DNA from: an uncultured bacterium
GTDB taxonomy: Bacteria; Patescibacteriota; Dojkabacteria; J137
NCBI GenBank assembly: GCA_963700155.1
Contig: OY969472.1
Location: 1,064,690 to 1,128,689, forward strand
Length of the DNA: 64,000 nucleotides
Reading direction: 5' to 3'
Shown: positions 3,813 through 30,225 of the stretch, one piece after another
Layout of the letters: each line of letters opens with the position of its first letter
Numbering within the stretch: the stretch's first letter is position 1
Program-made: the position numbers and the translations under genes
Notes under the pieces: model-generated
The model's input: the letters and a program-made list of their open reading frames with translations, nothing else
The model's database searches: none
Told to the model about the DNA's origin: nothing

Positions 3813-5354
3813 ATGGATGATAAAAAAAGTTCAGATTTAATTGGTCAAAGAAAACAAAGACTCGAAAAAGTTAAAAAGTTAAGAGATTTAGGTATAGACC
3901 CTTATCCAGCTAAATCTTTTAGAACTAACACTATAAAAGAAATTATTGATAACCCAGAACAATATTTGGTTGAGCAAGAAAAGAAGGGGAAAGAGGTTGT
4001 CTTAGCAGGAAGAATTACTAGTTGGAGAGGGCACGGGAAATTAGCCTTTGCTGATTTGGTAGATCAGGATGCTAAAATACAACTTTATATTAAAGATGAT
4101 GTATTGTCAGTAAAGGAGATTGAAGGTGGAAGGACACTCTCTTTTGATGAACTTGAACTAGTAGATGTTTATGATTTTATCGAGGTTTATGGTCAAATTA
4201 CTAAAACAAGAAGAGGTGAGCTTTCAATTCTTGTTAAACATTTAAGAATTTTAACTAAAGTATTAAGGCCACTGCCTACTTCACTTGAAGACAAAGAAGA
4301 AAGATTTAGAAGAAGATATGTTGATATGGCTGTTCATCCTGAAATTCGTGAACGAATGGAAAGAAGGTCACTTTTTTGGCAAGCACACAGAGAATTTTTG
4401 AATCAAAGAGGTTTTTATGAAATTAATATACCAGTTTTAGAGCATGTCCCTGGTGGTGGTGATGCTGTACCTTTTACTACACATATGAATGCTTTAGACG
4501 AGGACTTTTATCTTAGAATCTCTCATGAACTTCCATTAAAACGTCTAATTGGAGGAGGCTTTGAGAAAGTATATGATATTGGTGCAAGATTTAGAAATGA
4601 AGGATTATCTGATGAACATTTGCCCGAACATATAGCAATGGAATTTTATTGGGCATATGCGGATTGGAAAGATGGTATGAAATTTATTCAAGAATTATTT
4701 ACTTATGTTATAGGTAGAGTTTATGGTGATAAAAAAGTATTTAAAATTAGAGAATTTGAAGTAGATTTTTCAAAAGATTGGGAGATTGTTGATTTCAATA
4801 AAATAATGCAGGATAAATATGGTATCAAAAATATCTACTCAATTACTTTAGATGAAGTTAAAGAACTTCTAAGTAAAAATGAAATAGAATTTGATAGAAG
4901 CGTAAATATAGCAAGAGGTGTTGATGCATTATGGAAAAGGCTAAGAAAGACAATTCAAGGACCAGCATTTTTAGTAAATCATCCTAAATTTTTATCACCA
5001 TTACAGAAACCAAGTTTAGAAAATCCAAATATGGTTGAAAGATTTCAGCCGATTATTGCTGGAAGTGAATTAGGAAACGGCTGGAGCGAGGTTAATGATG
5101 CAGTTGATCAATATCAAAGATTTGTAGAGCAGCAAAATTTAAGAGATTCAGGAGATGCTGAAGCTCAATGGCTTGATGTTGATTACGTTGAGATGCTTGA
5201 ATATGGAATTCCACCTACATTTGGCTGGGGACATTCGGAAAGGGTTTTCTGGTTCTTAGAAGACGTTACTGCGAGAGAAGGTGTACCTTTCCCACAACTT
5301 AAAATGGATTTTGATAATATTACTAAAGAAATTTATCCAGAAGCTTTCGAGTAA
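3813..5354 (+). CDS. lysS: lysine--tRNA ligase, class II
   Basis: 513 aa with an N-terminal OB anticodon-binding domain. Class II motifs are present (FRNEGLS..H.PEH..MEFYWAY, GGGDAVPF, GWG.SERV). Confidence 0.9.
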   Translation: MDDKKSSDLIGQRKQRLEKVKKLRDLGIDPYPAKSFRTNTIKEIIDNPEQYLVEQEKKGKEVVLAGRITSWRGHGKLAFADLVDQDAKIQLYIKDDVLSVKEIEGGRTLSFDELELVDVYDFIEVYGQITKTRRGELSILVKHLRILTKVLRPLPTSLEDKEERFRRRYVDMAVHPEIRERMERRSLFWQAHREFLNQRGFYEINIPVLEHVPGGGDAVPFTTHMNALDEDFYLRISHELPLKRLIGGGFEKVYDIGARFRNEGLSDEHLPEHIAMEFYWAYADWKDGMKFIQELFTYVIGRVYGDKKVFKIREFEVDFSKDWEIVDFNKIMQDKYGIKNIYSITLDEVKELLSKNEIEFDRSVNIARGVDALWKRLRKTIQGPAFLVNHPKFLSPLQKPSLENPNMVERFQPIIAGSELGNGWSEVNDAVDQYQRFVEQQNLRDSGDAEAQWLDVDYVEMLEYGIPPTFGWGHSERVFWFLEDVTAREGVPFPQLKMDFDNITKEIYPEAFE

Positions 5355-5384
5355 TTATTTCTAAAGAATTAAGAAAGGTATTAG

Positions 5385-5410
5385 CGCCGTCGTTTTACCG
5401 AACGGCGCCG
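5385..5410. terminator. GC-rich hairpin (GCGCCG-N13-CGGCGC) between lysS and the minus-strand GC-rich RNA
   Basis: An 8-bp GC stem. On the minus strand it is followed by a U-rich tract (UAAUACCUUUCUU). The plus-strand side lacks a U tract, so it more likely terminates the minus-strand transcript. Confidence 0.4.
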
Positions 5411-5712
5411 AGGTACGGCTTTCCTAGCCTTGCCTCCAGGTCGGTTAGTACCGTTGCCTTAGGAGAACCAAAGTCCTCCAATGACCGATGAGCGATGTGG
5501 TCTGCTAGACGACAACTCTGAATCTGATGAGGTTGTTCGCCTGACGGTTCGCGGCGTTGAGGATGAGAATTCCTTCTTCGCGGCGAGTTTCATTGGAGTT
5601 ACCCTTAGAACCGTACATGATGCAAATCCTCCACTATTCATCGGTCTGCTCAGGCTCTGCCTTGTGAGCATCGGCCATGTGCATTGGCAAGAATATATCA
5701 TAGATAGTTTTT
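5385..5712 (-). ncRNA. GC-rich structured RNA candidate, possibly RNase P RNA (rnpB-like); identity unconfirmed
   Basis: About 52% GC across 330 nt in a roughly 28% GC genome. Both overlapping ORFs (5459-5743 minus, 5481-5714 plus) translate to implausible low-complexity proteins. Minus-strand blocks resemble RNase P type-A conserved regions, in the correct 5'-to-3' order (compared with E. coli M1 RNA recalled from memory). GCUCACAAGGCAGAGCC resembles GGGCUCCAUAGGGCAGGGUGCC. UAAGGGUAACUCCAAUGAAAC...GCCGCGAAGAAGG resembles GUAAGGGUGAAAGGGUGCGGUAAGAGCG. GCAGACCACAUCGCUCAUCGGUCAU resembles ACAGAACCCGGCUUAUCGGUCAG. There is long-range complementarity: AUGGCCGAUG with CAUCGGUCAU, and ACCGAUGA with UCAUCGGU. 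The element ends in a terminator hairpin. Confidence 0.35.
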
Positions 5713-5736
5713 GATGACAATAAATTTTGACAAAGT

Positions 5737-5766
5737 TTTTCAATAAGAAATATAATTAATTAATAT
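5737..5766 (+). promoter_or_regulatory. sigma70-like promoter TTGACA-N18-TATAAT upstream of the ORF at 5781
   Basis: Exact consensus -35 (5737-5742) and -10 (5761-5766) hexamers. The ATG lies about 15 nt downstream, so the leader would be very short. Confidence 0.3.
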
Positions 5767-5780
5767 TTTTAAATAAATAT

Positions 5781-6134
5781 ATGATTAGTCTTATAAAATT
5801 AAAACTTAATAAAATATTTAAAAATGAATTTCAAGAATTTGAAGACAATAAATCGGAAACTCAACAGCACTTGGAAGACATACTTATTAAATTTACAAAA
5901 GAGTATAAGCATGATTTAGCATTTGCATATGATATGCAAGATATGTATGGCACAGTAGAAGTTTTTAGGAAATATAAACCTTTAGTAGCAGAATTTTATA
6001 ATAATATTTTAAATTCAAATATTGATGAGGAATTATATGTTGAATATTTATCAATAAAGAATGGACTTCCTATGTATATTATTAGAGATCTTCTAACTGA
6101 ATCACAGGAATTGCTTAATCTATCAGAATCCTAA
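5781..6134 (+). CDS. hypothetical protein
   Basis: 117 aa ORF. Confidence 0.4.
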   Translation: MISLIKLKLNKIFKNEFQEFEDNKSETQQHLEDILIKFTKEYKHDLAFAYDMQDMYGTVEVFRKYKPLVAEFYNNILNSNIDEELYVEYLSIKNGLPMYIIRDLLTESQELLNLSES

Positions 6135-23009: not shown

Positions 23010-23420
23010 ATGAAGATTAAATTAAATAAAAAAATTCTTTTTAGTATGCCAATAATTTCATCCCTATTAGTTACTGTACCTGTTCTTGCAAGTGGCTATG
23101 ATTATACTTATAGCAATGCAGCAGATGCAGCTGCAGCTACAACATTTTTAGGGGGTACTTTTTTGTTAGCATGCTGTCCATTAATAATATATGTAGTTTT
23201 TGATCTTGTAATTGCATATATAGTTTATTCAGATGCAAAGAAAAACAAAGTAGAAAACGGTGTACTATGGGCTGTTATTACTTTCTTCTTCTCATTAATT
23301 GGTTTGTTAGTTTACTTCTTAGCAATTAGACCTGAAGCTATGAAGAAACATTCTGGAATGGCTACACCAATGCCAGAAACAAAGAAAGAAGAGAATATGG
23401 AAGAACCAAAGAAAGAATAA
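23010..23420 (+). CDS. small membrane protein with PLDc_N-like helix
   Basis: Signal/TM at the N-terminus; VLWAVITFFFSLIGLLVYFLAIRP resembles the PLDc_N small-domain family. Confidence 0.3.
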   Translation: MKIKLNKKILFSMPIISSLLVTVPVLASGYDYTYSNAADAAAATTFLGGTFLLACCPLIIYVVFDLVIAYIVYSDAKKNKVENGVLWAVITFFFSLIGLLVYFLAIRPEAMKKHSGMATPMPETKKEENMEEPKKE

Positions 23421-27603: not shown

Positions 27604-27779
27604 TTGAGTAATTTAACAGTTATGAATTGTACTGTTTGAATTTTAAAATATTTTATTAAAAAAAGATATGTACTATATTAACTAATTGAATGATTTCTTT
27701 TAAATTATTGTTATAAGGCTTTGAATTCCTAGTTATAAATATACCAAAAGATAGTTAAGCTATTTACTAATTTAGTTTT

Positions 27780-27947
27780 AAAATATATAATTATTATGAC
27801 TTTGAAGTTCTTTGGCAAGACTGAGTCATACAAACTAAATAAAGCTGTCTCAAGAAGTTGAGAAATTAAGGTGGAACCGCGGGAAACCGTCCTTAAAATA
27901 TAATAATTTATATTTTGAGGACGGTTTTTTATTTTTAAAATTTGGTA
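27780..27947 (+). promoter_or_regulatory. T-box riboswitch leader, glyQS type, glycine specifier GGC
   Basis: Stem I (AUGACU...AGUCAU at 27796-27829) contains GGCA in the specifier position (27814-27817). A short linker and a stem III hairpin (UCUCAA-GAAG-UUGAGA) follow. The T-box sequence AAUUAAGGUGGAACCGCGGG matches the consensus AGGGUGGNACCGCG, and its UGGA pairs with the U73-CCA of tRNA-Gly. The terminator CCGUCCUUAAAAUAUAA...UUAUAUUUUGAGGACGG plus U6 lies at 27885-27947. There is no stem II, as in glyQS T-boxes. Confidence 0.6.
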
Positions 27948-28839: not shown

Positions 28840-30225
28840 ATGAATACTGAAATTACTTTAGAAAAAATCGTTGCATGGTCAAAAAGACGAGGTTTTATTT
28901 TCCCATCTTCAGAAATTTATGGTGGGATGGCAAATGTCTATGATTTTGGACCTTACGGAACATTATTAAAAGAAAATTTAAGAAATTTATGGCTAAAGAA
29001 TTTTGTTTACGATCGTGAAGATATTTATGCAATTGATAGTAGCGTTATTTTAAACCCAAAAGTGTGGGAAGCAAGTGGACATACAACTAGTTTTGCTGAT
29101 GTAATGGTTGAGGATAAAGTAAGTCATAAACGATTTAGAGCTGATCATATTATAGAAGACTATTATCTAAGAAGAAATCAAGATGTGAAAGTAGACGGTA
29201 AAACACCAGAAGAATTAGCAGAAATAATTAAAGAAAATAATATTAAATCTCCTGATGGTAACGAACTTACTGAGCCAAAAAGATTTAACCAGCTTTTCCA
29301 GACTGAAGTCGGAATTATTGCTGGAGAAAAAAATAAAACATATCTTAGAGGAGAAATTGCACAAGGTTTGTTTATGAATTTTAAAAACATTCTTGACTCA
29401 TTACATCCTAAACTACCTTTTGGAATTGGTCAGGCTGGGAAAGCTTTTAGAAACGAAATAACAATGGGGAAGTTCACTTTTAGAACTTTGGAATTTGATT
29501 TAATGGAGTTTGAATACTTTTTTGACAAAGATAAGCAAAATTGGAAAGAATTATTTGAATATTGGAAAGATCAAATGAATAAATTTGCAGAAATTATTGG
29601 ATTAGAAAAAGAAAATTTAAGATGGAGGGAACATGAAGATTTTGAACGATCGCATTACTCCACTAGAACTGAAGATTTAGAGTATAAATTTCCGTGGGGA
29701 TTCAAGGAAATGTGGGGATTAGCATATAGAACAGATTATGATTTAAAAAATCATCAGGAAAAATCCGGAAAAGATTTAAGATACACATATCCCGATGGTA
29801 AAAAGATACTACCACATGTAATTGAACCAACCTTTGGTTTATCAAGATTGATAACAGTTTTAGTATTTGATTCATACAGAGAGGAAGAAGTTAATAGTAA
29901 AACAAGAGTGTATTTAAAATTCAAACCATCTATTGCTCCAATAAAATTTGCGGTTTTTCCTTTACAAAAAGACGAAAAACTTAGAGAGTTCGCAAAAAAT
30001 TTATACACTGATTTAAGAAAAGATTTTATTGGTGAATTTGATGATTCAGGTAATATTGGGAAAATGTACAGAAAGCAGGATGAAATTGGAACACCTTTTT
30101 GTATAACTGTAGATTATGAAAGTTTGAATGATAAAGCGGTAACAATTAGAGACAGGGATACTATGCAGCAAGAAAGAATTTCAATTGATAAATTGAAAGA
30201 TTATATTAAAACAAATTTAAAATAA
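28840..30225 (+). CDS. glyQS: glycine--tRNA ligase (alpha2 homodimeric type)
   Basis: N-terminus EKIVAWSKRRGFIFPSSEIYGG..N.YD.GP.G is typical of alpha2 GlyRS; class II motifs; C-terminal anticodon-binding domain. Confidence 0.85.
   Translation: MNTEITLEKIVAWSKRRGFIFPSSEIYGGMANVYDFGPYGTLLKENLRNLWLKNFVYDREDIYAIDSSVILNPKVWEASGHTTSFADVMVEDKVSHKRFRADHIIEDYYLRRNQDVKVDGKTPEELAEIIKENNIKSPDGNELTEPKRFNQLFQTEVGIIAGEKNKTYLRGEIAQGLFMNFKNILDSLHPKLPFGIGQAGKAFRNEITMGKFTFRTLEFDLMEFEYFFDKDKQNWKELFEYWKDQMNKFAEIIGLEKENLRWREHEDFERSHYSTRTEDLEYKFPWGFKEMWGLAYRTDYDLKNHQEKSGKDLRYTYPDGKKILPHVIEPTFGLSRLITVLVFDSYREEEVNSKTRVYLKFKPSIAPIKFAVFPLQKDEKLREFAKNLYTDLRKDFIGEFDDSGNIGKMYRKQDEIGTPFCITVDYESLNDKAVTIRDRDTMQQERISIDKLKDYIKTNLK

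Follow-up and report, generated by a model that had tools for sequence, protein, structure and literature searches.

Directly after lysS, at positions 5383 to 5690 of the window (the whole 64,000-nt stretch of DNA analyzed here), lies a block of about 306 bases with a GC content of 51%, against 27.9% for the window. The block is a real, unusual, lineage-specific GC-rich insert and the strongest composition excursion within the 64-kb window. In the searches run, it belongs to no known RNA or protein family and cannot be recognized as a gene or the remnant of one. One of a kind as it is, it may encode a small RNA. Our best guess, offered tentatively, is that the minus strand encodes an orphan noncoding RNA of some 300 nt with a transcription unit of its own. 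We infer the transcription of the block, RNA as its functional product, and every downstream function from the sequence, and a protein-binding or regulatory role of the candidate RNA would be a guess.

In 20-nt steps, the GC fraction passes from 0.25 to 0.30 into 0.45 to 0.75 at approximately 5383 and drops to 0.00 to 0.25 after approximately 5690. The richest 330-nt segment of the 64 kb reaches 0.515, approximately 6 SD over the mean (SD, 0.038), with the runner-up at 0.388. This excursion favors the minus-strand RNA, as does the location of a promoter-like site at one block edge and of a hairpin at the other (Table 1). The original prediction of a jump from about 28% to about 52% over some 330 nt agrees with the values measured for 5385 to 5715 (51.1% versus 27.9%). 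A Logan contig from a second, independent assembly is 100% identical across 3,710 bp, both block junctions included; the block is therefore not a chimeric join, and an assembly chimera was ruled out. The tRNA genes in the same window are 49 to 51% GC, so that the composition of the block matches that of the stable RNAs of this genome, which again argues for the minus-strand RNA. In addition, the public contig has zero genes called across the block, in favor of the RNA and against a coding reading. Two further candidates were rejected, namely, a replication origin or terminus at a local GC-skew peak, as the skew merely tracks gene orientation, and a tandem duplication of a unit of about 150 nt, as the two halves of the block are only weakly alignable (P = 0.03) and share no common fold.

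Table 1. Features of the GC-rich block and its right flank (positions in the window)
Feature	Position	Strand	Remarks
Candidate transcript of ~300 nt	5383-5690, start ~5685-5688 to hairpin	-	Basis: composition, fold, second assembly
Sigma-70-like promoter: TTGTCA, 17 nt with extended-10 TG, TATATT	5692-5720	-	Right block edge
GC hairpin GGCGCCGU..ACGGCGCU, putative terminator with noncanonical tail	5383-5409	-	Left block edge
Local hairpin GGAGGAC-UUUG-GUUCUCC	5462-5479	-	-10.3 kcal/mol, 97% of ensemble, z -2.99
16-nt hub UCAUCGGUCAUUGGAG	5476-5491	-	Complementary to three upstream sites (9, 9, and 10 bp)
Hub partner a CUCCAAUGA	5590-5598	-	9 bp, perfect; crosses helix b
Hub partner b GACCGAUGA	5638-5646	-	9 bp, perfect; closes ~150-nt domain in MFE fold
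Hub partner c AUGGCCGAUG	5669-5678	-	10 bp with one G-U; helix of the original prediction
77-aa ORF, frame open from 5463	5481-5714	+	Same reading frame as lysS; rival coding reading
Perfect 12/12 consensus sigma-70 promoter	5727-5756	+	Back-to-back with the minus-strand promoter-like site
Orphan 117-aa gene	5781-6134	+	Not found in relatives; may belong to the insertion

LysS is closest to that of Candidatus Dojkabacteria (Patescibacteria), with 72 to 75% identity to GTDB representatives and up to 84% in a large protein collection, which places the host among Dojkabacteria-like bacteria of the candidate phyla radiation (CPR). The genome is contained in sample ERR11571143. The block was compared with approximately 30 related lysS loci taken from genomes, metagenomes, and Logan assemblies. 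No homolog of the block was found in these loci by blastn or nhmmer at an E value of ≤100, nor was a known RNA or the GC hairpin found after lysS in them. Some relatives retain the wider gene order of lysS, miaA, and a gene for an MgtC/DUF4010 membrane protein. Directly after lysS, every relative is different, with an HD-domain gene, a NUDIX, GIY-YIG, VanW, or UvrB-C-like gene, or a C-terminal fusion of LysS itself, which marks the site downstream of lysS as a putative recombination or insertion hot spot. Because the block is absent in relatives, the DNA downstream of lysS is variable, and the neighboring 117-aa gene is an orphan, the block appears to be an insertion specific to this lineage, perhaps with that gene included, at a position that varies among genomes.

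The predicted promoter of the 117-aa gene matches the sigma-70 consensus perfectly (12/12), as does no other site in the first 20 kb of the window. When its product was queried against 5.8 billion clusters, the sole match was the protein itself, and it has no Pfam or PHROG family and no viral, phage, or plasmid relative in the collections searched. An AF2 prediction gave an all-helical model at a pLDDT of 50, too low for a fold search.

Searches beyond the lysS loci also came back empty. The phage, plasmid, and E. coli collections gave no blastn match to the block, and three 20-mers of the block and two protein queries found no match in viral contigs. As no blastn or tblastn match held, an origin in, or contamination from, phage, plasmid, or E. 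coli DNA was rejected. The missing homologs in the related lysS loci, these collections, and the viral 20-mer scans count against the minus-strand RNA. A block unique to this genome and absent in all related loci examined, at a spot where the sequence downstream of lysS differs in every relative, is also what would be expected of inert foreign or decaying DNA from a GC-richer source, fixed at a recombination-prone site and with no current function, its promoter-like site and hairpin being coincidental. The weakly alignable block halves would be consistent with such a scrambled origin. We consider this reading rather unlikely: donor-like sequence was not found in the searched collections at the DNA or protein level, neutral DNA of 51% GC in a 28% GC genome should decay fast, and the edges of the block are sharp and lie at transcription signals.

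Two GC-rich patches in related loci were rejected as relatives of the block. The patch after LysS in locus L015 corresponds to a linker of low complexity that leads into a C-terminal extension, and the GC-rich spacer of L021 lies upstream of serS, contains a T-box-like motif, and has no similarity to the block. This lysS-serS spacer, from a more distant relative, spans 385 nt (4492 to 4876) at 62% GC in a 44.5% GC locus, and has no Rfam match at an E value of ≤10. The T-box-like motif in it reads GGGUGGACCGAGCGG, and the spacer may represent an unusual leader of serS. In addition, the LysS proteins of this clade (P0009 to P0120; L002, L015, and L024 to L034) carry at least three C-terminal fusions (HD [PF01966], PF09391, and B3_4 [PF03483]) or none. 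Loci L028 and L029 share the same LysS and differ in the neighboring minus-strand ORF (5625 to 5942), which is a 105-aa GIY-YIG domain protein versus a 79-aa product without a domain match. This difference suggests a decaying homing-endonuclease-like gene beside lysS in these two loci.

At the right edge of the block, the minus-strand promoter-like site is one of approximately 22 sites that score at least 10/12 in 20 kb and the sole one with the TG. Promoter-like matches overall number 123 versus 127 in shuffles; as they are not more common than by chance in this AT-rich genome, the site is weak evidence, which tells against the minus-strand RNA and fits inert DNA. At the left edge, the hairpin is more stable on the minus strand (-17.6 kcal/mol, z = -3.71) than on the plus strand (-14.7 kcal/mol, z = -1.63). 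It bears out one half of the earlier claim that the minus strand ends in a GC hairpin followed by a U-rich tract. The other half did not hold, since the U-rich stretch begins only after AAUACC, and a terminator scan rejects the hairpin for this reason. A genuine terminator elsewhere in the window has its U-run immediately 3' of the stem, and the missing adjacent U-run is a point against the minus-strand RNA.

The whole block folds at -112.7 to -114.9 kcal/mol on the minus strand (z = -3.95) and at -115.9 kcal/mol on the plus strand (z = -2.81). For the 5' domain, the z-scores are -2.47 on the minus strand versus -0.64 on the plus strand, and the 143-nt core has a z-score of -1.44. Folding thus favors the minus strand for the whole block, the 5' domain, and the edge hairpin, in support of the minus-strand RNA; such strand asymmetry would be unexpected of random DNA. 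However, 14% of ordinary 206-nt windows of the genome reach a z-score of ≤-2.47, and once calibrated in this way, the thermodynamic support for structure is weak. These unexceptional z-scores also suit inert DNA.

The stable plus-strand fold, together with the lack of any other lysS terminator ahead of the block, raises the option of a structured 3' untranslated or terminator region of the lysS mRNA, for example, a stabilizer against 3' exonucleases. We regard this as very improbable, given that the 5' domain has almost no excess stability on the plus strand, where the edge hairpin is weaker as well. Moreover, relatives have no similar element after lysS, their visible terminators are short AT-rich hairpins, and 300 nt far exceeds what a stabilizer needs.

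The minus strand has a 16-nt hub that is complementary to three upstream segments (Table 1). The original prediction had noted a 10-bp complementarity of AUGGCCGAUG with CAUCGGUCAU. This helix is present, with one G-U pair, although it is not unique, as the hub has two more, perfect 9-bp partners. The two 9-bp pairings cross, so that they would form a pseudoknot or mutually exclusive alternatives. Two perfect 9-bp helices on one hub occur in 0.75% of shuffles (P = 0.0075), and several short motifs recur above chance, namely, UGGAGG three times (P < 0.0005), GCAGACC twice (P = 0.0005), and CCGAUG twice. Both observations favor the minus-strand RNA, and the hub complementarity would be unexpected of inert, random DNA. 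A trans-acting small RNA with a target in the window was rejected because shuffles give duplexes as good as the best one found; this lack of target complementarity counts against the minus-strand RNA.

The block had originally been proposed to be a compact, divergent RNase P RNA gene (rnpB), with an unclassified stable RNA as the fallback. Its size and GC content are within the range of RNase P RNA, and like the type A RNAs (RF00010, with E. coli M1 and the CPR forms), it has a long-range helix and a CPR host. Rfam 15 was run at the gathering score on the window, which covers 64 kb of the 1,140,724-bp contig, and with permissive filters (E ≤ 10) on both strands of positions 5300 to 5800 (501 nt) and likewise on the whole window. 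At the gathering score, only four tRNAs were found in the window; the permissive search of 5300 to 5800 returned one chance snoRNA match, and the block had no match in that of the whole window. Neither RF00010 nor RF00011 matched at an E value of ≤10 in the 501-nt search, in which scores below roughly 14 bits would escape. The covariance models of tmRNA, signal recognition particle (SRP) RNA, and 6S RNA gave no match on either strand, ARAGORN found only the four tRNAs in the window, and the minimum free energy fold is multibranched rather than a rod with a central bubble, in contrast to SRP and 6S RNA. RNase P RNA, tmRNA, SRP RNA, 6S RNA, and all other Rfam families were therefore rejected on the Rfam, ARAGORN, and motif tests, and the rnpB assignment fails on the very point by which it was to be judged, a search that returns no RNase P match.

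In RNase P RNA, the conserved regions CR-I and CR-V form the P4 helix. As the RNase P RNAs of CPR bacteria may score under Rfam thresholds, CR-I to CR-V were tested explicitly by scoring them on both strands against dinucleotide shuffles of the block, with E. coli M1 RNA as the reference (100% match to the annotated rnpB). The best matches of the five motifs were no better than in the shuffles (P = 0.35 to 1.0). For CR-I (GAGGAAAGUCC), the best match has 3 mismatches in 11 positions (P = 0.45) and lies at nt 253 of 311, close to the 3' end. CR-V (ACAGAAnnCGGCUUA) is matched with 5 to 6 mismatches in 13 positions (P = 1.0), and CR-II, CR-III, and CR-IV with 2 to 3 in 9 (P = 0.35 to 0.99). The RNase P-like blocks quoted earlier are absent from the sequence, the nearest matches requiring 2 to 4 substitutions each, and instead of the correct order I-II-III-IV-V, the minus-strand order is III (nt 27), IV (nt 46), II (nt 84), and I (nt 253). 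In addition, the 10-bp helix could not be upheld as P4/P2-like, since the P4 sequence is missing and the hub has two competing partners. The likeness to RNase P RNA goes back to short matches that are equally frequent in shuffled sequence; one short local minus-strand match to E. coli M1 RNA (P = 0.02) is the single above-chance resemblance.

Diverged CPR RNase P RNAs can miss Rfam thresholds, which speaks for the rnpB reading, yet they are reported to be detectable with RF00010 and to keep many conserved features, and one Dojkabacteria genome has a recognizable rnpB (Lui et al. 2021, PMC8172020). Furthermore, an essential RNA would not be expected to be missing at the same site in all relatives and to have no sequence relative. 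A highly reduced, divergent RNase P RNA is thus scarcely credible for this block, a recognizable rnpB being expected elsewhere in the 1.14-Mb genome, and local GC enrichment within AT-rich DNA does not by itself point to RNase P. The fallback fared better. Of the readings considered, a putative stable RNA outside the known classes ranks first, carried by the edge signals and minus-strand folding, although the z-scores are unexceptional for this genome.

A sub-threshold T-box leader was seen elsewhere in the window, at 27745 to 27930 on the plus strand (RF00230; E = 2.8e-4; 35.7 bits, where the gathering score is 93). Its AAGGUGGAACCGCG box is clear, and its terminator consists of a hairpin and a U-run. 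Downstream of the leader are a 250-aa ORF, for which Pfam gives no match, and a class II aminoacyl-tRNA synthetase gene (28840 to 30225). The leader is probably a real T-box in a reduced CPR form, overlooked at default thresholds.

The main competitor of the minus-strand RNA is a protein-coding reading, in which the 77-aa ORF would be a horizontally acquired small plus-strand gene or its recent remnant, cotranscribed with lysS or expressed from a weak internal promoter, its GC content coming from the donor and not from RNA structure. In a variant of this reading, the minus-strand transcript would act as antisense RNA to this gene, an arrangement known from convergent type I toxin-antitoxin loci. 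We hold the coding reading, with or without the antisense RNA, to be a serious yet unlikely one. It draws on 83 open codons in plus frame 0 (peptide, MTDERCGLLDDNSESDEVVR...) and on a gene-like base composition by codon position (G1, 0.36; T1, 0.14; GC2 lowest). Within 5463 to 5690, a base-by-phase test gave a χ2 of 17.1 (P = 0.011) for a sub-region picked after viewing the data; 5385 to 5462 is without signal, and the whole block gave a P value of 0.06. The confinement of this three-base periodicity to the open part of plus frame 0 is a point against the minus-strand RNA. The period-3 signal-to-noise ratio of 2.21 corresponds to the 95th percentile of shuffles, though the periodicity reaches approximately 70% of that of native genes. 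AF2 models the 77-aa product as a helical hairpin with a pLDDT of 68 (75 to 85 over residues 31 to 70), too low for a fold search. The variable site, which holds mobile-type genes such as GIY-YIG in relatives, and the adjacent 117-aa gene, likewise an orphan, also fit an acquired gene.

Against this reading, protein searches yielded no relative. None of the frames of the block belongs to a Pfam or PHROGs family, a weak PHROG match to a holin being noise (E = 0.12). Searched exhaustively with HMMER, 1.84 billion representatives gave zero matches to the 83-codon frame, and 5.8 billion clusters gave none at an E value of ≤10 to a concatenate of all other frames. When viral contigs, phages, and plasmids were searched in translation, the only match was to a plasmid (E = 0.1; Shinella hisN), which is antisense to hisN, was gone in the sense frame, and was discarded. 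A conserved protein-coding homolog overlapping the block, which would have spoken against a structured RNA, was thus not found in the protein searches. The earlier view that the ORFs across the block are implausible as proteins is borne out by the 77-aa (plus) and 94-aa (minus) frames, both without family or homolog, and this lack supports the minus-strand RNA.

Codon usage points the same way. All ORFs of the block have a codon adaptation index (CAI) of 0.24 to 0.37, in contrast to 0.70 ± 0.04 for the genes (minimum, 0.61), and a GC3 of 0.46 to 0.62 versus 0.165; the 77-aa ORF itself has values of 0.31 and 0.48. Moreover, its ATG directly adjoins a stable hairpin, and the GC-rich block reaches approximately 95 nt upstream of this ATG. 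A 37-aa minus-strand ORF with GGAGGA 8 nt upstream was rejected (CAI, 0.24); this genome is nearly without Shine-Dalgarno sites, so the GGAGGA carries no weight. The Shine-Dalgarno core (GGAG, GAGG, or AGGA at -18 to -7) precedes 2 of the 64 ORFs of at least 100 aa in the window, whose upstream regions are AT-rich; the ORF at 23010 to 23420, which has a strong AAGGAGG, is an exception. A decayed HD-domain gene or LysS C-terminal extension, suggested by synteny, the shared frame, and a match of 6 of 8 residues, was rejected as well, since the HD profile scored -2.7 and -2.8 bits. Matches of the block to 47 extensions of the HD, PF09391, and B3_4 types were at chance level only. Should the block nonetheless be foreign coding DNA, it would be the record of a gene taken up recently from a donor that is richer in GC and not yet sampled.

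Type I toxin-antitoxin systems combine a small hydrophobic toxin with a transmembrane helix and an antisense RNA, and convergent loci of this type include fst/RNAII of pAD1 and txpA/RatA and bsrG/SR4 of Bacillus subtilis. As these are described, the block resembles them in its small ORF, in an opposite-strand promoter-like site from which an antisense RNA would overlap the ORF, in a hairpin shared at one end, in alternative pairings over long range within a structured mRNA, and in its strain-specific DNA. It differs from them in that the 77-aa ORF has an acidic N terminus, no clear transmembrane helix, and no toxin-family homology; the lack of a clear transmembrane segment also weakens the coding reading.

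Returning to the minus-strand RNA, the GC-rich block would have been inserted, in this lineage, into the variable stretch that separates lysS from miaA. Transcription would start near 5685, approximately 7 nt downstream of TTGTCA-17(TG)-TATATT, run convergently to lysS, and end at the GC hairpin at 5409 to 5383, with approximately 30 nt left to the stop codon of lysS. The predicted RNA would fold into a multibranched 5' domain of about 150 nt, closed by the 9-bp long-range helix and followed by short 3' hairpins, with the hub pairing with its three upstream segments in suggested alternative conformations or a pseudoknot. As a free-standing unit between genes and not a 5' leader, the candidate resembles independently transcribed bacterial small RNAs that have their own promoter and hairpin terminator. 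Unlike typical base-pairing small RNAs, it is larger (about 300 nt) and GC-richer (51%), and its target complementarity is at chance.

Long GC-rich intergenic regions of AT-rich bacterial genomes have been used to enrich for structured noncoding RNAs (GC-IGR approach), and these studies name an RNA only when several representatives and covariation are at hand, referring to others as "unnamed" or as a "low-ranking candidate" (PMC6429828, PMC11109978). The block resembles the unnamed motifs in being long, intergenic, far above the genome in GC content, and without a BLASTX-type explanation. In contrast to the named RNAs, it has one representative and therefore stays "unnamed" in these terms (PMC11109978).

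More speculatively, and with little probability in our view, the candidate could be the first member of an undescribed class of stable RNAs of about 300 nt in Dojkabacteria-like CPR bacteria, with the 16-nt hub switching among its three partners as a conformational switch or pseudoknot. Such an RNA may act jointly with the orphan 117-aa protein, whose gene is transcribed divergently, the two forming a horizontally acquired module. To our knowledge, the noncoding RNA repertoire of the Patescibacteria/CPR is almost unexplored. A real minus-strand RNA would extend this repertoire by a stable RNA specific to one lineage and would mean that even episymbionts with genomes of 1 Mb acquire new RNA genes at recombination hot spots.
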